Under the pieces are notes generated by a model that saw only the letters and a program-made list of their open reading frames with translations, had not been told where the DNA came from and searched no databases. A stretch of DNA of 32,000 bases from Halomicronema hongdechloris C2206 (GTDB lineage Bacteria; Cyanobacteriota; Cyanobacteriia; Phormidesmidales; Phormidesmidaceae). The stretch is from the NCBI RefSeq assembly GCF_002075285.3, contig NZ_CP021983.2, forward strand, positions 5,340,001-5,372,000. Direction: 5' to 3'. Made by a program: the position numbers and the translations under genes. Positions 2,387-14,219 of this stretch are shown one piece after another. Every line of letters starts with the position of its first letter. Position 1 is the first letter of the stretch.

Positions 2387-2444
2387 CCTACACCACCCCA
2401 TCACCATCACCCCTAAGCCCTGCGGGCAGGCTGCGCCTACACCC

Positions 2445-2493
2445 CATCACTCATCACTCATCACTCGTCACTCATCACTCGTCACTCATCACT
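2445..2493. repeat. Heptanucleotide tandem repeat, 7 units of CRTCACT (STRR-like), within a pyrimidine-rich tract
   Basis: CATCACT CATCACT CATCACT CGTCACT CATCACT CGTCACT CATCACT read directly. The reverse-complement family (GTGACGA x3) occurs at 13510-13530. Confidence 0.9.
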
Positions 2494-2538
2494 CCTCCCG
2501 CCTACCTGTTCTCCGTTGTTCCCGTTACCTAAAGACCC

Positions 2539-2952
2539 ATGCCGACCATCGCCGACATCGCCATCAACACAGACGGATTCTCGACCCTGGTCGCGGCTGT
2601 TCAGGCTGCCGGTCTGGTGGAGAGCTTGCAAAGCCCCGGTCCGTTCACCGTCTTCGCCCCCAACGACGAGGCCTTCGCCCAGCTGCCGCCAGGGACGGTG
2701 CAAACACTGGTGCAAAATCCACCGCAACTGGCCCGCATCCTCACCTATCATGTGGCTGCCGGTAAGTACACTCAAGCCGATCTGATCCGCCTGGGACAGG
2801 TGGACTCTGTCGAGGGAGCACCTATTCCCATCGATGGCAACGAAGGGGGCACCGATGGCTTTGAAGTGAAAAATGCCACGGTGCTGGCCGCCGACATCGA
2901 AGCCGACAACGGTATCATCCATGTCTTGGACCGGGTGATCTTGATGGGATGA
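2539..2952 (+). CDS. Fasciclin (FAS1) domain protein, 137 aa
   Basis: Classic FAS1 motifs are present: [23 protein letters not shown] (H1), YHV and [12 protein letters not shown] (H2). Confidence 0.9.
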
Positions 2953-3093
2953 GGACATGGTTGAGGTCATGGATGTAGCTGGGGTCATGCAGACTCGGTC
3001 ATAACTGTAGGCAAATGGCCATGACGTCCCCAGGTGTGGTTTGGCCTATGATGGCAGCAGAGACTCCACCCGTATGATCACGCCTCCTTCGCT

Positions 3094-3321
3094 ATGGCTC
3101 CAGATCCTACCGGCCAGCAGGGTGCGGCTGCCCAGCGGTTGCGGCTGTATCGGGCCCTGCAAGAATTGCCCTCGACCCAGTTCGAGGCCCTGGGCCAGAC
3201 CCACACCGTCTTCTTCAAGCTGCGGGGGGCGGGTCTGGTGCGGCGGCGCAGCAGTGTGCAGGCGGTGGTACCCCGCTGTCAGGTGTATGAGACCTACTTT
3301 CGGCAGCATCTGGCGGGGTAG
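3094..3321 (+). CDS. Small hypothetical ORF (75 aa). Its C-terminal tail (PRCQVYETYFRQHLAG) resembles, from memory, the tail of cyanobacterial AAA-like/ATPase-associated proteins, so it may be a gene fragment
   Basis: The ORF is present. Its last ~50 bp plus ~27 bp downstream are duplicated at 4082-4147. Functional status is unknown. Confidence 0.3.
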   Translation: MAPDPTGQQGAAAQRLRLYRALQELPSTQFEALGQTHTVFFKLRGAGLVRRRSSVQAVVPRCQVYETYFRQHLAG

Positions 3322-3347
3322 CGTGTTCCCCCGGCGCTGCCTTCCGT
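3272..3347 (+). repeat. Left copy of a degenerate ~70-bp direct repeat bracketing the HNH cassette
   Basis: The core GGCGGGGTAGCGTGTTCCCCCGGCGCTGCCTTCCGT (3312-3347) matches GGCGGGTTAGCGTGTTCCCCCGGCACTGCCTCCCGT (4112-4147). Weaker similarity extends ~40 bp upstream (CGCTGT..TGTAT..AGACC). Confidence 0.8.
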
Positions 3348-3371
3348 CGCAGCAGCATCCTCAGCTTCGGG

Positions 3372-3827
3372 TTAAGTGCCTTCCTCTCGTGGATCATGTT
3401 CAGGGGGATGCCAGCCCCCCTTAATCCACAACCTTCTGGCTTTCAGAATAGAGCCTTCATTGTGGAAATCATCGTTCAAGTCCAGTCTGTGACAGGTGGC
3501 CCGCCCGCAAGGTGTCGTGCCAATAATTCTCAGGCCATCGGATGACCACCTGAAATGGTCTGCCCAAATCTGTTCTCGTGGATTGAATAGCGGTACGGTC
3601 TCATCTGTTTCTGGATCGATGCCTGTCGTGAAGTTGTAGCGATAGCTGTTGCAACGTTGGCAGGCCAAGGCAAGGTTATCCAGTTGATCTGGCCCTCCCA
3701 AGGAACGGGGCAGAATGTGATCGACCGCAAATCGGGCTGCACTAGCATCTTCAGGAGAGTGGCAGTATTCACAGAGATAGCTGGCGCGTTGCTGCACCTG
3801 TTGCCGCATGCCAGGGCGGATGGTCAT
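3372..3827 (-). CDS. HNH endonuclease (151 aa)
   Basis: HNH motif CEYCHSPEDASAARFAVDHILPRSLGGPDQLDNLALACQRCNSYR (Cys pairs, DH, N...N). The start overlaps the stop of the upstream small ORF by 4 nt (ATGA). Confidence 0.85.
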   Translation of the reverse strand: MTIRPGMRQQVQQRASYLCEYCHSPEDASAARFAVDHILPRSLGGPDQLDNLALACQRCNSYRYNFTTGIDPETDETVPLFNPREQIWADHFRWSSDGLRIIGTTPCGRATCHRLDLNDDFHNEGSILKARRLWIKGGWHPPEHDPREEGT

Positions 3828-4063
3828 GCTTCGGCGATGATTTTGGCGTTGAGCAGGGTGAAAATCCGGTCTAGCTCAAGCAGCCCAGCCAGCTCAGCAT
3901 GTTCTTCATCTGTCAAGCGATCGCATTTGTGCCGTTCGTTCAGGTTGTCGAGCCGAGCTTGCAAGGAGTCTGTAAATTTGAAGAGATACTGGTTGCGGAC
4001 TTTGCGAAGGGTAATTCCTGAATCAACCCAAGATGAGGGCTGAACCATCGTTTGGGTGATCAT
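3824..4063 (-). CDS. Small hypothetical protein (79 aa), translationally coupled to the HNH endonuclease
   Basis: 4-nt overlap with the HNH start. Helical, charged sequence (RLDNLNERHKCDRLTDEEHAELAGLLELDRIF). No family recognised. Confidence 0.55.
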   Translation of the reverse strand: MITQTMVQPSSWVDSGITLRKVRNQYLFKFTDSLQARLDNLNERHKCDRLTDEEHAELAGLLELDRIFTLLNAKIIAEA

Positions 4064-4081
4064 TGGCGGGGTATGGACGAA

Positions 4082-4147
4082 CGCTGTACCTGTATTTTAG
4101 ACCCTATGATGCGGCGGGTTAGCGTGTTCCCCCGGCACTGCCTCCCG
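4082..4147 (+). repeat. Right copy of the direct repeat bracketing the HNH cassette, followed by a strong hairpin (about 4134-4178)
   Basis: See 3272-3347. GGCACTGCCTCCC...GGGAGGAATGGCAGTGCC can fold into a long stem immediately upstream of the MNT gene. Confidence 0.8.
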
Positions 4148-4222
4148 TACAATGCCTCTGGGAGGAATGGCAGTGCCTGCCTAACCGATGGAATCACCGT
4201 GAAAGCTATTCGCCCAGAAAAC

Positions 4223-4567
4223 ATGGCCACCTATCGGCAGACGCTGCGGCTGCGAGAGGCAGAGGCTCAGCAGCAGCGGCAGCAGCGCTGGCAGGCGGCC
4301 TGGGGGGTGGCGAGGCAGGGCGGTGACATCCTGAAGCAAGAGTTTCGGGCGATCCAGGTGATTGTCTTTGGCTCCTTGCTGCATCCAGAGTGGTTTTCCA
4401 TGACCTCGGATATTGACTTGGCCGTTGCGGGACTTTCTGCTTGGGATCACTTGGCCGCCATTGCCCAGATGCAAGATCTGTCGGATTTCAAGGTGGATGT
4501 CATTCGCCTAGAAACCTGTCCCCCACGGTTGCGGGGGGTGATTGAGGCGGAGGGACAGGAGCTTTGA
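4223..4567 (+). CDS. Nucleotidyltransferase-domain protein (MNT-type antitoxin)
   Basis: Pol-beta NTase signature VFGSLLHPEWFSMTSDIDLAV (GS...DxD). I prefer the ATG at 4223 over the upstream start at 4052, which crosses the repeat; GTG 4199 is also possible. The stop overlaps the next gene's start. Confidence 0.8.
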   Translation: MATYRQTLRLREAEAQQQRQQRWQAAWGVARQGGDILKQEFRAIQVIVFGSLLHPEWFSMTSDIDLAVAGLSAWDHLAAIAQMQDLSDFKVDVIRLETCPPRLRGVIEAEGQEL

Positions 4568-5055
4568 GGACGACTTATCTAACCATTGCCGGGCGCATTC
4601 GCCAAGAACTGACTGAAATTACCCAGGTGGTTGAGCGAGTACAGCAAATCTGGCAGCTGTATACATCGACTCAACCGAGGGGCAATGAGTTCTTAGTGGA
4701 TGCCACAGCTCTTAACCTACACAGTTTCTATGCTGGCATTGAGCGGCTGCTGGAGGTTATCGCCGATCGCATTGATCGGGAGAAACCTATGGGATCGGCC
4801 TGGCATCGGGAGCTACTGCAGCAGATGACGGCGGATATTCCTGGGGTGCGTCCTGCGGTTCTCAGTCCAGAAACGCGCACTCGCTTGGATCGCTATCGCG
4901 GCTTTCGCCATGTCGTGCGCAATGTCTATAGCTTTAGCCTAGATGTGGAGCAGATTGTGCCATTAGTGCGGCATCTACACGCAGTTGACGCTCAGATCCA
5001 GCGCGAGCTCTCCCAGTTTGCTGACTGGCTGGAGCAGGCTGCCGGTGCTGAGTGA
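4564..5055 (+). CDS. HEPN-like partner of the nucleotidyltransferase (putative toxin), 163 aa
   Basis: TTG start overlaps the MNT stop (TTGA). All-helical sequence with an R/H-rich motif, YRGFRHVVRNVYSF. The assignment rests mainly on the conserved MNT-HEPN gene-pair architecture. Confidence 0.55.
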   Translation: MRTTYLTIAGRIRQELTEITQVVERVQQIWQLYTSTQPRGNEFLVDATALNLHSFYAGIERLLEVIADRIDREKPMGSAWHRELLQQMTADIPGVRPAVLSPETRTRLDRYRGFRHVVRNVYSFSLDVEQIVPLVRHLHAVDAQIQRELSQFADWLEQAAGAE

Positions 5056-5216
5056 ATTGGGCTTAGGGATGGCTTTTGATTCTGGGCACGCTCCGCGAGA
5101 TGTAGGAATCGTCTATGTCGCTGACGCGCCACACCAAACGATGAAAATCGTGTCTATTTTCAGAGCAATGACGGGAGTGTGATACCCGTGGAAGCTAAAT
5201 CAACGTTGGCAAGCAT

Positions 5217-5275
5217 TACCGTCATTCCGGGCAAGCGTCAGCGCCACCCGGAATCCAGGTAGAGGGCTGGGCTAT
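5217..5275 (+). repeat. Hairpin-containing dispersed repeat, copy 1
   Basis: The 39 bp CGTCATTCCGGGCAAGCGTCAGCGCCACCCGGAATCCAG (5220-5258) are identical to 5656-5694. Inside it, ATTCCGGG-N15-CCCGGAAT forms a stem-loop. The downstream AGAGGGCT is also shared. Confidence 0.9.
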
Positions 5276-5299
5276 TCGCCCAGAACTTCTCGGCGGAGA

Positions 5300-5555
5300 T
5301 TTTCAGGGATGGGATTCCGGCTATGCCCTCGGGGTACGCCTGCCCTGGACCTACGGCTGTCGGTGGGTGGTGGCAGATCTCGATAAGACCGCACTTGGCT
5401 TTCTAAATCAGAGGGCTCACCTGGGGGAATTTCGATTTCCCCCAGACCCCCTCGCCCAGGGCCGGACCGCCGCCCTGGACCCAGCGGAAGGGCTGATCTG
5501 TGATGTGGTCTAGATCGCGTTGCATCGGTGAGGAGGCGTCCTGGCATTGGGGGCA
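5300..5555 (-). repeat. Copy A of a ~260-310 nt non-coding element (candidate structured RNA), homologous to 13578-13880 on the opposite strand
   Basis: Shared blocks, as A(-)/B(+): 5379-5396 = 13785-13802 (18/18); 5512-5528 vs 13607-13623 (16/17); 5472-5493 vs 13642-13663 (21/22). Hairpin 5421-5445 matches 13737-13760 with two compensatory pair changes. The element boundaries are approximate. Confidence 0.75.
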
Positions 5556-5580
5556 GATGTCGTGGGGCCAGGCTTGACGC

Positions 5581-5611
5581 CCTGGATTCCCGCCGCCGCG
5601 GGAATGACGGT
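5581..5611 (-). repeat. Related hairpin repeat in inverted orientation, with a short loop
   Basis: The minus strand reads ACCGTCATTCCCGCGGCGGCGGGAATCCAGG. It has the same ACCGTCATTCC...GGAATCCAGG ends as 5217-5259, with a different stem top and loop. Confidence 0.75.
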
Positions 5612-5652
5612 ACAGGGTTTCCTCAGGCGGCAGACTCACCGCGTGACAGTGG

Positions 5653-5712
5653 TTTCGTCATTCCGGGCAAGCGTCAGCGCCACCCGGAATCCAGACAGAG
5701 GGCTATAGCCCA
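5653..5712 (+). repeat. Hairpin-containing dispersed repeat, copy 2
   Basis: Identical 39-bp core to 5220-5258, sitting 436 bp downstream of copy 1. Confidence 0.9.
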
Positions 5713-5922: not shown

Positions 5923-5990
5923 AGATCTTTATCGCAACTTCATGGTACAGACCGGGCACCTTAAGGATGTCCAGTAAATAGGTGATTACC

Positions 5991-6638
5991 ATGCATCAAA
6001 CCATTGACGAATTCATTACCGCCGTCCAAGTCGCCATCGACAACGCCTTAGCCAACTCCACCCTGCAAGCCGCCCTGAGTGACTTCGGCTATACCCCCGA
6101 GCGCCTCGCCCAGGGACGGTCCCTCCACGCCAGCGCCCTGGTCGCCCACCTGCAGCAACGGGCCGAATATGGCGATCAGGCCAGCGCCACCGCAGCCCTG
6201 CAACAAACCCGCGACACCGCCGAGAAGAGCTACATGCGCCTGGTCAAAATCGCCCGCATCGCCTACAAAGACAACCCCGGTGCCCTGGTGCGGTTGGACC
6301 TAAACGGCAAACGCAAGCGCAGCCTCTCCGGCTGGCTGTTGCAGGCTCAGCAGTTCTACAGCAATCTGCTGGCCGCCCCCGACCTGCTGGACAGCCTGAA
6401 GCAGTACGGCGTCACCGCCCAGAAGGTCAAAGCGGCCCAGGCAGAGCTGGCTGCGGTGGCAGCCGCCAATTTGGCCCAAGAGCAGGAAAAGGGCCAGGCC
6501 CAAACCGCTACCCAGGTCCGCGATACGGCTCTGGATGCCCTCAGCGACTGGTTCAGCGACTTCATCGCCATCGCCCGCATCGCCCTGGAGGATGAGCCGC
6601 AGATGCTGGAAGCCATGGGGGTGATGGAGCCTTCTTAA
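5991..6638 (+). CDS. Hypothetical protein (~215 aa), alanine/glutamine-rich and helical
   Basis: Long ORF with host-like codon usage. ATG at 5991, with GTG 5982 as an alternative. No family recognised. Confidence 0.6.
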   Translation: MHQTIDEFITAVQVAIDNALANSTLQAALSDFGYTPERLAQGRSLHASALVAHLQQRAEYGDQASATAALQQTRDTAEKSYMRLVKIARIAYKDNPGALVRLDLNGKRKRSLSGWLLQAQQFYSNLLAAPDLLDSLKQYGVTAQKVKAAQAELAAVAAANLAQEQEKGQAQTATQVRDTALDALSDWFSDFIAIARIALEDEPQMLEAMGVMEPS

Positions 6639-6798: not shown

Positions 6799-9700
6799 AT
6801 GGGTTGTCCTGACAAGTTTCTTGGTCTAGTCGCCGCTACCGTGTTAGTGGCTCCGGCGCTGCAACTGCCTGGATGGGCCAACGACTCAAAAACGTTCCAG
6901 GAGTTGCCAGTTGCCCAGGTAGCAGAGCCCACCGCGCTGTTGCAAGTAGATGGAGTCCTTGAGCAGGGCGATACCACCCTGAGTAGTGGACACCTGGTGG
7001 ACTATCATTCCCTGGAGGGTCAGGCTGGGCAGGCGATCACCATCCGCCTCAGCAGTGACGACTTCGATCCCTTCCTAGGAGTATTGACCGCTGAGGGGGA
7101 GGTGTTGGGGGTCCATGACAATCTCAGTGTCTCGGATACCAACGCTAGCCTGACGATGATCCTACCCGCGGACGGCGCCTACAGCCTCGGGGTGACGTCA
7201 AGCCCTGAGGCCAGCAATGGCCAGGGACGCTATCGACTCATCGTAGTCACGGCCAGTGCTGCCGAGGTTCGCAGAGCCGAGGCTGAGCAATTGTTGCAGC
7301 AAGGTATTCAGCACTATCGTGCCGGTCAGTTCCAAGCGGCCGCCGATGTCTGGGAAACTGCTCTGGAGCACTATCAAGACCTGGGTGATCGGTCTCAAGC
7401 AGTAGTGCTTCTGATCAACCTGGGAGACGTCTACACCTCCCTAGGACAGTATCCGGCGGCGGTAGCCCGCCTGGAGCAGGCCCTGGAGATTGCCCAGTCC
7501 AGGCAGGATCCCCAGCAGGAGTCTGATGCCCTCAATGCCCTGGGATGGACCTATGTGCTGATGAATCAGTATCGGTTGTCCATCACCTACTCGGAGCAGG
7601 CGCTGGCCCTCCACCGACAGATCGGAGATCTCTGGGGGGAAGCCAGGGCCTTGAATCATCTGGGATTGGCCTACTACGCCTTGAACGACTATCGCCAGGC
7701 CATTACTTACTACGAGCAAGCCCTACCGGGATTCCACCAGGTGGGAGATCGTCGGGGCGAGGCCAATGCCCTGATGAATCTGGGCAGTGCGCACTGGTCC
7801 CTGAGCGATTACCGTCAGGCCATCGCCTACAGTGAACAGGCCTTACCAATCTTTCAATCCCTTGAAGATATAGAAGGGGAAGCCAAGGCCCTGACGAATC
7901 TGGGCAATACCTATCTATCTCTGAGTGACTACCGCCAGGCCATTACCTACTACGAGCAGGCGCTGCCTCTGTTTCAACAGATTGAAAGCCCCCTAGGGCA
8001 AGCCAATGTGCTAATGAATCTAGGGTTGGCTAACAATTATCTCAGCGACTATCGTCAGGCCATTGGCTACTACGAGCAGGCATTGCCTATCTTTCAGGCC
8101 ATCGGCGATCGCTTGGGCGCAGCCAATGTGCTGATGAATGTGGGCAACGCCTATTTCTTCCTCAGTGACTACCGCCAGGCCATTACCTACTACGAGGAAG
8201 CTTTGCCGGTCTTTCGAAGCATCGAAAACCGGCAGGGCGAAGCCAATGCCCTGATGAATCTGGGCAATGCCCACAACTTTCTCAGTGAGTATCAGCAGGC
8301 CATTGTCTATTACAAGCAAGCGCTTCCCGTATTTCGGACCATTGAAGACCGCTTGGGGCAGGCCAATGTGCTGACGAATCTGGGCAATGCCTATCTCTCC
8401 TTGAGTGACTATCATCAGGCGACGGTCTCCTACGAACAGGCGCTGCCGCTGTTTCAGGCCATTGAAAACCGCTTAGGCGAAGCCAATGCCCTGATGAATC
8501 TGGGGCTAACCAATACATTTCTCAGTCTCTATCAAGAGGCGATTACCTATTACCAGCAGGCCCTAAAGCTATTTCAGCAAATTGAGGATCGTCAGGGGAA
8601 AGCCAATGCCCTCAGTAACCTGGGCCTGACCTACTGGTCCATCGGTGACCCCGGAGAAGCCATTGCCTACTACGAGCGATCTCTGCCGCTGTTTCAGGCC
8701 ATTGAAAACCGGTCAGGGGAGGCCAACACCCTGATGAACCTGGGTCTGGGATACTTCTCCTTGGGGGATTATCAAACGGCTGCAACATACTACGAGCAAG
8801 CCCTCCCCCTGTTTCAAACCATTGAAGATCGAGCCGGAGAGGGCCGTCTGCTCAGTAATCTTGGTAGATTGTTTGCCATCCAAGGGCAGTCAGACCTGGC
8901 CATCATTTTCTACAAAGCCTCGGTTAATGTGCGGGAGTCAATCCGCAGTGGTTTGACTGGCTTATCCCAATCGCTCCAGGAAACCTACACCGAGTCTGTC
9001 GCCAACGACTACCGTGCCCTAGCCGATCTACTCCTGGAACAGGGCCGGATTCCAGAGGCTCAGCAGGTGCTAGACCTATTGCAACTAGAAGAATTACGAG
9101 AGTTCACCGAGACAACCCGAGCCACCTGGAGCGGCGGCGATCTGCAATACACCGAGCGAGAGCAGCCGGTCATCGATACCCACGGTAGCCTCATCACCCT
9201 GGGACGACAGATCTATGAGTGTCGCCAGACTCGCTGTGGTGATTTAACGGATCTACGCCAACAACAGCGGGCCTTGACAGAGCAGTACGAGGCCCAAGTG
9301 GCGGCGTTTGAAACGGCCATCGATGAGAATAGGCAGGATGACGATCTGTTTCAAAATCCCGGTGACCTCAGCGACGACGCCTATAAGCTGCTGCAAGCCA
9401 ATCCCGATGCCGTGTTGATCTATCCCTTTGTCACCGAAGATAAGCTCTGGCTGCTATGGGCTGCTGCCGGGGGCACGGTAGGCAGTGTCGAGGTACCAGT
9501 GTCCCAGGGGGAGCTAGCCACGGCGATCCAGCAATTTGGTGACCAGCTCAACACTCAGGCCCCCTTATCGGAACTACAGGCCAGTAGCCAACGCCTCTAC
9601 GAATGGTTGATTCAACCCTTGGCAGCCGAGTTACAGGCCAACGGTATCCGGCAACTCATTTTCGTCAATGATCGGGTGACTCGCTATGTTCCCATGGCCG

Positions 9701-11492: not shown

Positions 11493-12349
11493 GTGGCACG
11501 GGGATTATTTGTGGGGCTGATGACGCTGGATTGCCTCTATCGCGTCGATCATGTCCCGGCGGCCAATGAAAAGCTGGTGGCCCAGGATTGTCTGTTGCTG
11601 GCCGGGGGGCCGGCTACCAATGCGGCGGTGACCTTTGCCCATCTGGGCCATCAGGCCACGGTGATGGGGGCCTTGGGGCAACACCCGCTGACGCAGCTGA
11701 TTCGGGCGGAGCTGAGCCAGCATGGAGTTGCGATCGCACCTCTCCTGAGCGATACCCCCGAGCCCCCGCCCCTATCCACCAGCCTGATCACCCTGGCCAC
11801 CGGCGAGCGGGCCGTGGTCTCCCGCAATGCTGTGGGTCGGCAGCGACACCGGCACCGGAGCTGGCGGCTGCCCTAGATGACGTGGATATCGTGTTAATCG
11901 ATGGCCATCAGATGGCCGTCGGCCAGACCCTGGCTGAGGCGGCTCGGCAGCGGGGACTGCCCGTGGTCATCGACGCCGGCAGTTGGAAACCTGGCTTTGA
12001 GACCCTGTTGCCCCTGGCGACCCACGTGATCTGCTCGGCTAATTTTTACCCGCCAGGGTGTAGCAGCCCGGACGCCGCCTTGAGCTACCTCCAGCATCTG
12101 GGAATTCCCCAGGTGGCCATGACCCGGGGAGCCGAGCCGATTCTCTACAATCGGCAGCAGTCCTGGCAGGCCTTGCCAGTGCCCCAGGGCCCCGTCGTAG
12201 ACACCTTGGGGGCTGGCGACATCTTTCACGGTGCCTTCTGCCACTACGGCCTCAGCCAGCCCTGGCCCCAGGCCCTGACTCTGGCCGCCCAGGTAGCCAG
12301 TCATGCCTGCCGCTATGTCGGCCCCCGGCCTGGATGCAGCACCCCTTGA
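11493..12349 (+). pseudogene. PfkB-family carbohydrate kinase, split by a single-base frameshift (or an assembly indel)
   Basis: The N-terminal part GLFVGLMTLDCLYRVDHVPAANEK...GERAVVSRNAVG is in the frame of GTG 11493 (Shine-Dalgarno GAGGAGG). The C-terminal part SAATPAPELAAALDDVDIVLIDGH...DTLGAGDIFHGAF (PfkB signature) is in another frame. The break is at about 11835-11837. Confidence 0.75.
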
Positions 12350-13406: not shown

Positions 13407-13560
13407 GGAGAGCGAAGGACGGGGAAAGAGTGGATGGGTGATGGGGAAAAGGGAAAACGGAGGACGGAGGGCGGAGGACGGAAAAGAGGGCGGAGGAGGG
13501 GAAGGGGAAGTGACGAGTGACGAGTGACGAGTGGATGGGTGGATGGGTGGATGGGACAGG
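13407..13560 (+). repeat. ~150-nt polypurine (G/A-rich) tract ending in GTGACGA x3 (13510-13530) and GTGGATGG x3 (13531-13554)
   Basis: Read directly. It has multiple GGG/GGGG runs, and the heptamer is the reverse complement of the repeat family at 2445-2493. Confidence 0.9.
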
Positions 13561-13577
13561 GTAGGGGCGCGGTTGCC

Positions 13578-13880
13578 GCACCCAATGTAGAAAACCGGCT
13601 ACCCTGCCGATGCGACGCGATCTTGAACGACCAACCGACAGGCCCTTCCGCAGGGTCCAGGGCAGTGATTCGACTACGTTGCTCCTGCGGAGCCGCTTTG
13701 CGAACATCACAGGCGGCTCGCCCTGGTCGTCGGAGTCCGAGGGAAGCGAAATTCCCTCGGGTGAGACCCCCGAGCTACACGATTAAGTGCGGTCTTATCG
13801 AGGTCTATCACGCTTCGCCGATGCGACGCGATCCACACCGGCTGATCGACCATCCCACGAGGGCTTGGATCGCCCCTCTC
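13578..13880 (+). repeat. Copy B of the non-coding element (candidate structured RNA), immediately upstream of the thiC TPP riboswitch
   Basis: See copy A (5300-5555). Helix CCAGGGC (13657-13663)/GCCCTGG (13720-13726) encloses 56 nt here but only 9 nt in copy A. CCGATGCGACGCGATC occurs twice within B (13607 and 13817). Confidence 0.75.
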
Positions 13881-13923
13881 TCTATAGCTCAGTTGGGCCA
13901 GAGGTGCTATGCTGACAGACAAG

Positions 13924-13997
13924 CTAGGGGTGTCCGAATTCTCGGGCTGAGATCATACCCTGAGAACCTGACCTGGGTCATACCAGCGGAGGGAAGC
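13924..13997 (+). promoter_or_regulatory. TPP (THI-box) riboswitch aptamer
   Basis: CTAGGGGTGTCC...GGGCTGAGATCATACCCTGAGAACCTGACCTGGGTCATACCAGCGGAGGGAAGC matches the conserved GGGGUGC / CUGAGA / ACCUGAUCUGGAUAAUACCAGCG / GGGAA core. It is on the same strand as thiC and upstream of it. Confidence 0.85.
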
Positions 13998-14219
13998 GTT
14001 GATTGAGGTTCTACAACCGAAGCGACGGGGGATCGTGTCTCTACAGGGGGCAGCGGCTACGGCCCATCAAGGTTGGTCTTGGCCGTCCCTGGCTGTGATG
14101 ACTAGGCTGGGCAGCTTGGCCTAGGCGATAGGTGCCTTGCGGCCACATTGACCCCATCCCAGAAACCTGTCTGGATCTCTATATCCGCCTCTAGCCTGCT
14201 CAATTCGAGGAGGAGGGGT

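Follow-up and report, generated by a model that had tools for sequence, protein, structure and literature searches.

The BOX elements of Streptococcus are composed of boxA, a variable number of boxB modules, and boxC (PMC3049150). They are interspersed and intergenic, range from 67 to 637 bp with their varying number of modules, are predicted to form stem-loops if transcribed, give rise to spurious ORFs on either strand, and are confined to a narrow lineage (PMC3049150). ERIC and REP-BIME sequences are spacer repeats with imperfect palindromes, often found at the 3' ends of genes; they show insertions and deletions at fixed points, and binding by proteins or an effect on mRNA stability has been proposed for their conserved motifs (PMC3184786). 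An ERIC sequence consists of a single long imperfect palindrome with TA on its flanks, and REPs are 20-40 nt long and linked to RAYT transposases (PMC3184786). MITEs, in the strict definition, have terminal inverted repeats and target-site duplications (PMC3184786, PMC3049150). The cyanobacterial MITEs Nezha and MaeMITE are small, non-coding, multi-copy elements that reside in spacers alongside other repeats (PMC3184786, PMC10969869). The omega-RNAs of IscB and TnpB (HEARO) and the bridge RNAs of IS110 are 150-250 nt in size, comprise several stems, and occur in many copies. In the NsiR1 array of Nostoc, small RNA units of ~60 nt, each carrying a promoter and a terminator, are arranged in tandem.

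Here, we describe a repetitive element of Halomicronema hongdechloris C2206, which was found in a window of 32,000 nt (contig NZ_CP021983.2, positions 5,340,001 to 5,372,000 of the forward strand; positions given below refer to this window unless another locus is named). The element resembles BOX in all of the traits listed above, with no similarity in sequence; BOX has terminal inverted repeats and target-site duplications, neither of which was found for the H. hongdechloris element, and the latter is G+C-rich. Its likeness to ERIC and REP-BIME concerns the palindrome-containing spacer repeats, the frequent location at 3' gene ends, the indels at fixed points, and the conserved motifs. It differs from both by its unit of ~163 nt with several separate blocks, which can be arranged in tandem and has no known partner protein. 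All traits named for Nezha and MaeMITE apply as well, but the element lacks terminal inverted repeats and target duplications at its flanks, and these flanks are homologous from copy to copy. In size, number of stems and copy number the element is similar to omega-RNAs and bridge RNAs; unlike these, it has no adjacent nuclease or recombinase gene and no HEARO match, and its flanks are conserved rather than variable in the manner of guides. With the NsiR1 arrays it shares direct tandem units in a cyanobacterial spacer and a hairpin in each unit, but neither promoter or terminator signals nor a match in Rfam.

Copies of the element and anatomy of its unit

A preliminary description of the window had reported homology between two oppositely oriented regions, 13578-13880 (+) and 5300-5555 (-), which we call copy B and copy A, respectively. 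This homology is confirmed. Within the 32-kb window, blastn aligns 13720-13806 with 5462-5375 (75% over 88 nt, E 6e-11) and 13607-13663 with 5528-5472 (77% over 57 nt, E 4e-7), and both regions can be aligned over their entire length with MAFFT. The three block matches named there were reproduced, i.e., 18/18 for 13785-13802 and the reverse complement of 5379-5396, 21/22 for 13642-13663 and that of 5472-5493, and 16/17 for 13607-13623 and that of 5512-5528. The homology reaches slightly past the ends given there, to ~13562-13878 and ~5318-5575.

Copy B (13562-13878, +), delimited by blastn and by MAFFT against copies A and C, comprises a 5' leader, one full unit and a degenerate second unit (nhmmer E 2e-86; covariance model 172 bits). 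Copy A (5318-5575, -) consists of a full unit and a partial second unit (nhmmer E 5e-83; covariance model 171 bits). A third full copy, copy C (L011:5296-5560), was found in the closest relative, represented by locus L011 on a 499-kb JGI metagenome contig; its ThiC is 94% identical and is the closest other ThiC. The assembly of the relative is JGI 3300022725, with contig Ga0254891_1000004 and its companions. Copy C occupies the tpiA-pnp spacer on the strand opposite to both genes. In addition, there are two 5'-only copies. Copy D (2314-2400, -; nhmmer E 1e-3 with the A/B/C profile) is degenerate and contains a leader, the 17-mer-like sequence ATCAATGCGAC, a linker and a decayed form of the 22-nt block; heptamer repeats precede it, as they do copy B. 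The other is a stub upstream of thiC in L011 with the same parts (leader, 17-mer, linker, decayed 22-nt block). Three full and two 5'-only DNA copies are present at non-orthologous sites in two genomes.

At least four further copies are known as ORF translations alone. A comparison of ORF 13524-14006, which covers copy B, with 1.84 billion representative proteins yielded four. XM38_029510 (ASC71997.1; P0121) and XM38_016780 (ASC70733.1; P0122) are annotated as hypothetical proteins of H. hongdechloris and lie outside the window, and P0123 and P0124 stem from JGI metagenomes; a fifth match in the same search is to the translated riboswitch. XM38_029510 matches window 5603-5081 and is a paralogue of the entire composite around copy A. 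This gives at least five loci with copies in H. hongdechloris and at least four in relatives, where the DNA inspected from the two element-bearing genomes amounts to ~75 kb. The element forms a family and is no chance pair.

At thiC, six relatives at a greater distance (L056, L057, L063-L066; ThiC 88-90% identical) carry no copy, and neither the nhmmer profile nor covariance model R1 detected further copies in the DNA examined. An exact scan of the genome contig collection with the 18-mer gave 10 matches, all within unrelated coding genes, and one of metagenome contigs with CTTCYGCWGGGTCCAGGGC gave 41, all by chance. Viral contigs yielded no exact match of the 18-mer and 5 chance matches of the 17-mer, and distant blastn against plasmids and phages returned nothing. 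A similarity between 5420-5468 and 6074-6122, the latter inside ORF 5982-6638 (73% over 49 nt), was judged to be chance. The repeat family is previously undescribed and, among the genomes examined, restricted to H. hongdechloris and its nearest relative.

The unit is ~163 nt long (range 163-211 nt). Its modules follow each other in the order 17-mer, linker of ~18 nt, 22-nt block, variable hairpin, 9-bp hairpin with GGTGAG, linker of 19 nt, 18-nt block, and tail of ~14 nt. In copy B, the full unit covers 13606-13816 and measures 211 nt, including an extra hairpin segment of 47 nt. The initial 17-mer (GCCGATGCRACGCGATC; in copy B GCCGATGCGACGCGATC at 13606-13622, +; in copy A 5513-5529, -) is the most conserved block of the family. 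It carries at most one change across ~10 instances, decayed copy D excepted, and is translated as PMRRDL or CRCDAI in P0121-P0124. The 22-nt block (GCCCTTCYGCWGGGTCCAGGGC; in copy B GCCCTTCCGCAGGGTCCAGGGC at 13642-13663, +; in copy A 5472-5493, -) is invariant at 20 of 22 positions in copies A, B and C and holds a small CCCU/AGGG hairpin. For the variable hairpin CCAGGGC...GCCCTGG, the preliminary description had reported a helix kept around loops of different length. This applies to copy B, where it encloses a structured loop of 56 nt (13657-13726, +), and to copy A with its 9-nt loop (5456-5478, -), while in copy C the 3' arm is deleted and the helix is lost. The insert of this hairpin recurs at other lengths in P0121, P0122 and P0124. 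Near the 3' end of the unit, the 18-nt block (AAGTGCGGTCTTATCGAG at 13785-13802, +, in copy B; 5379-5396, -, in copy A) is identical in A and B and retained at 14/18 positions in C.

In every full copy the unit restarts after the 18-nt block. Copy B does so with a second exact 17-mer at 13817-13833, which forms with the first a direct repeat of 17 nt that had been missed before, and which leads into the degenerate second unit (13817-13878, +). The spacing from 17-mer to 17-mer, 211 nt, equals 164 nt plus the 47-nt extra segment. The 5'-only copy that lies before thiC in the relative is the probable orthologue of this second unit. Copies A and C restart without an intact 17-mer, and MAFFT places their 18-nt block under the 17-mer. 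XM38_016780 contains PMRRDL twice, 54 codons (162 nt) apart, and thus spans two tandem units; copy B has the same junction of 18-nt block, short tail and 17-mer. The modularity is seen in full, 5'-only and tandem forms and in a hairpin insert of varying length: units occur singly, singly with a partial second unit, as a 5'-only stub, or two in tandem, and are placed in intergenic spacers in both orientations.

Copies B, C, D and the JGI copies are preceded by a leader that combines a G+C-rich hairpin with repeats of the heptamer or purine-rich type. In copy B, its hairpin is GGGGCGCGG-TTG-CCGCACCC (13564-13583, +), which is present in copy C and weak in copy A. Tandem arrays of heptamers or octamers (CATCACT, ACGGAGG, AGTGACG, GTGGATGG) are located directly 5' of copies D and B, at 2445-2494, 13457-13482 and 13509-13555. 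A purine-rich tract of the GGAGGAC type lies 5' of copy C (L011 5262-5300) and of the translated JGI copies.

Copy A is flanked by a separate MITE-like repeat of ~120 nt in one full and one partial copy (5580-5699 and 5167-5268, both on the minus strand). This repeat ends in inverted repeats of 9 nt (CTGGATTCC...GGAATCCAG) and has a hairpin inside; 49 nt of its two copies are 96% identical. Its translation is also contained in P0123 and XM38_029510, so that the two occur together at other sites, too. Direct repeats of 49 nt on either side of copy A, considered as a target duplication of the element, turned out to be two copies of a different repeat. Between the direct repeats D and A, an islet of 2.9 kb (2400-5318) carries a 151-aa HNH endonuclease (3372-3827, -), a 79-aa ORF (3824-4063, -) overlapping its start, and an MNT/HepT-like toxin-antitoxin pair (4052-5055, +). 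Elsewhere in the window, two overlapping ORFs that are read in different frames, 11493-11876 and 11588-12349, correspond to the N-terminal and the C-terminal part of the PfkB kinase profile; the gene at 11493-12349 looks frameshifted, or there is a sequence error.

Coding potential, conservation and RNA structure

The preliminary description had taken the element as non-coding and had named codon-periodic substitution as a sign to the contrary. Substitutions are spread evenly over the codon phases (30/25/28, 27/22/19 and 31/34/34), the annotated ORFs over other copies cross the unit in differing frames, and none of the six overlapping ORFs has a Pfam match. One might still regard the copies as belonging, whole or in fragments, to a small family of protein-coding genes, since GenBank lists hypothetical proteins over two other copies and long ORFs span copies A and B. 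Besides the missing phase bias and the empty Pfam result, this is contradicted by a stop in copy A within the frame that is open in copy B, by XM38_016780, whose second unit is read partly in another frame than the first, and by ORF 13524-14006, which passes through the TPP riboswitch. A published proteome table reports zero spectral counts for XM38_016780. We assign next to no probability to a gene family of this kind. Judged by its sequence, a coding role for the element is excluded, and XM38_029510 and XM38_016780 are most likely spurious ORFs across repeat copies.

The conservation among copies A, B and C is a mosaic. Within the four blocks, 55 of 63 columns are invariant (87%), as against 14 of 49 (29%) in the linkers and the variable region; on the scale of the two genomes, fourfold-degenerate sites of thiC are 73.5% identical. 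The blocks are either under constraint or subject to homogenisation. Blocks that are near-perfect between copies whose linkers are saturated point to a function in each copy.

The only robust structural element is the 9-bp hairpin CCGAGGGAA-GCGAAA-TTCCCTCGG (13737-13760, +), which is followed by an invariant GGTGAG (13760-13765). Comparison with its counterpart CTGGGGGAA-ATCGAAA-TTCCCCCAG in copy A (5445-5421) confirms the earlier observation that two pairs are changed on both arms. In total, 3 of the 9 pairs are changed on both sides with pairing kept, and 96% of cells are paired. In P0121 and P0124, the exchanges E>G plus F>S imply that A-U became G-C, just as it did in copy C. Covariation could be assessed on three DNA sequences (A, B, C) and hence with little statistical power; three pairs covary, all of them in this hairpin.

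Beyond the 9-bp hairpin, RNAalifold proposed one long-range helix, which pairs the 17-mer with the 18-nt block. The free energies of this duplex are -16.3, -9.4 and -19.1 kcal/mol; random windows do as well or better in 6%, 37% and 1% of cases, respectively. Compared to shuffled sequences, z-scores for folding are -1.9 and +0.8 for the whole elements, and for the cores they range from -1.5 to -2.2 in sense and from -0.7 to -2.4 in antisense. Predicted folds are of low stability on either strand. Mismatch and wobble positions favour different strands in different helices. A further candidate, the long-range pairing CCGCA/TGCGG between the loop of the 22-nt block and the 18-nt block, is broken in copy C.

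The preliminary description, which matched the element to no known RNA family, had suggested a comparison with Rfam. In Rfam 15, including HEARO, group II intron domains, ribozymes, 6S and Y RNA, the TPP riboswitch alone passes, and each copy searched singly at E<=10 gives nothing above 15 bits. Neither a sigma-70-like promoter nor an intrinsic-terminator-like site was found at any copy. A group I intron, considered for the ~190-nt segment that is present or absent, was discarded, since a terminal U of the 5' exon and a terminal G of the intron cannot both be had at any boundary, and since the element lies outside any gene.

Copy B and the probable thiC promoter

Copy B had been placed directly 5' of a thiC TPP riboswitch, and this is indeed the case: the riboswitch is found at 13916-14011 (Rfam, 68.3 bits), and thiC comes next (Pfam). 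The ThiC encoded in the window shows 100% identity to the H. hongdechloris C2206 protein. Just before the aptamer, and outside the element, we observe a probable thiC promoter with the extended -10 motif TGCTATGCT (13905-13913, +). The motif TGnTATnnT is conserved at the same place, as TGATATGCT in L011 and as TGATATCAT in L064. Transcription of thiC is predicted to start at ~13919-13922. As this conserved extended -10 is located between element and aptamer, copy B is probably situated upstream of the thiC promoter, outside both the riboswitch leader and the thiC transcript.

This bears on the idea that copy B is a cis-regulatory element of thiC which acts together with the TPP riboswitch. Its position directly upstream of the riboswitch and the 5' stub upstream of thiC in the relative would fit such a role, but the extended -10 separates element and aptamer, the other copies adjoin unrelated genes in other orientations, and the thiC spacers of the six other relatives, four of which are just ~100-230 nt long, show no trace of it. 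We consider a regulatory role of this kind very improbable.

Upstream of thiC, the relative has just the 5' stub, where H. hongdechloris has the stub plus a full unit; the alignment fits an insertion and an unequal recombination alike. The gene order around thiC is wholly different between the window and L011, with the synteny break coinciding with the element: an inositol-monophosphatase-family gene lies upstream of thiC in the window, and an epimerase and two tRNA genes in L011. These are genes for tRNA-Tyr and tRNA-Thr (9096-9261, -), ~100 nt upstream of the element stub. In the window, the segment CTATAGCTCAGTTGGGCCAGAG (13881-13903), just upstream of the thiC -10, resembles a tRNA 5' acceptor plus D-arm and is partly conserved in L011; ARAGORN predicts no tRNA in the window.

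Origin and interpretation of the repeat

For the nature of the element, a guide-type RNA of the HEARO or omega-RNA kind and a MITE had been put forward. No terminal inverted repeats common to A, B and C were detected (scan with seed 6, length >=10 nt), and no target-site duplication at the copies; the sole flanking direct repeat, the 17-mer in copy B, belongs to the conserved interior of all copies. Genes for tnpB, iscB, a transposase, an IS110-type recombinase or a reverse transcriptase are absent near the five DNA copies (Pfam on window ORFs; gene tables of L011), and the one nuclease in the neighbourhood is the 151-aa HNH protein, 1.5 kb away. The idea of a guide-type RNA is therefore not supported, with no neighbouring tnpB or iscB and no match to HEARO in Rfam. 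The suggestion of a MITE agrees with an element that is small, multi-copy, spacer-located and devoid of a transposase gene. Since terminal inverted repeats, target-site duplications and a nearby transposase or recombinase gene are all lacking, it nevertheless falls outside the strict definition, and mobility stays a proposal for the same reasons.

Two other readings deserve attention, in which the unit is either an RNA gene or a cassette. In the one, the units are structured non-coding RNA genes of ~160 nt that stand alone, as paralogues within a multi-copy family; the blocks would then be junctions or binding surfaces, both hairpins helices, and the pairing of 17-mer and 18-nt block would close the domain. 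A covarying stem, a stem of variable length at a fixed site, and conserved blocks give the classic look of a structured RNA. Mosaic conservation (87% of block columns invariant, 29% in linkers), the three compensatory pairs in the 9-bp hairpin, the restriction of the length-variable insertion to one hairpin, and the intergenic copies in either orientation relative to their neighbours are all in line with it. Even the four changes of copy C in the 18-nt block comprise two that are wobble-compatible and two at unpaired positions of the closing helix. Of the structured RNA proposed in the preliminary description, the absence of coding, the family and the covarying hairpin stand. The second helix, CCAGGGC/GCCCTGG, does not, as it is missing from copy C; nor do folding energy, strand preference, and promoter and terminator signals. 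The closing helix is energetically ordinary by the comparison with random windows, the core z-scores of -1.5 to -2.2 are similar on the reverse strand, mismatches and wobbles give contradictory strand signals, and neither promoter nor terminator conservation is seen. Truncated and decayed copies exist, and there is no relative in Rfam. An RNA gene therefore appears to be a tentative option on the unlikely side.

In the other reading, the unit belongs to a mobile or recombination system: the 17-mer is the core site at which a site-specific recombinase inserts and excises units as cassettes, or a guide-type RNA, similar to an omega-RNA or a bridge RNA, is encoded by a unit that has been left without its protein gene. 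It draws on the exact 17-nt direct repeats 211 nt apart in copy B and the single 17-mer at the thiC site of the relative, on the retention of the 17-mer with at most one change in ~10 instances except in decayed copy D, and on copies D and A as direct repeats around the 2.9-kb islet with its HNH endonuclease and MNT/HepT toxin-antitoxin pair. However, no gene for a recombinase, TnpB, IscB, an IS110-type protein or a reverse transcriptase occurs near the five DNA copies, HEARO and the other mobile-element RNA models of Rfam are unmatched, and the flanks of the copies are homologous to each other, unlike those of independent insertions. Unequal recombination between tandem units accounts just as well for the difference of one unit at thiC. 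We regard this mobile cassette as quite improbable. Somewhat less doubtful, though still improbable, is the more general proposition that the unit is an undescribed functional structured RNA or single-strand module (e.g., a processed unit-length RNA) or a recombination cassette recognised by its 17-mer; either would explain four near-unchanged blocks amid saturated linkers.

The reading we put first, and to which we give about an even chance, is that of a non-coding interspersed repeat of the BOX/ERIC/REP kind which is modular, able to form tandems and confined to one lineage. Truncated copies, tandem units, co-occurring repeats and a range limited to one lineage are easier to reconcile with an interspersed repeat than with an RNA gene. 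For such a repeat, unequal recombination or slippage between the directly repeated starts of units may change the copy number at a locus, which would account for the one extra whole unit upstream of thiC in H. hongdechloris. New loci would arise from a process at the DNA level, either segmental duplication or mobilisation in trans. The hairpin and the invariant blocks would be selected features by which host proteins, or the machinery copying the element, recognise it. As for BOX, ERIC and REP, effects at the RNA level would presumably result from co-transcription in the UTRs of neighbouring genes and not from a dedicated RNA gene.

From a biological point of view, the element as it stands is chiefly a matter of annotation: it accounts for two, and probably more, spurious hypothetical proteins in the genome record of H. 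hongdechloris, and it probably sets copy B apart from the thiC riboswitch leader. It also marks spacers that are prone to rearrangement, as the thiC neighbourhoods of the two genomes differ exactly at the element. Invariant blocks next to saturated linkers suggest that sequences in each copy are recognised. If the recogniser were an RNA fold or a dedicated recombinase, the repeat would represent a small new system of one cyanobacterial lineage.
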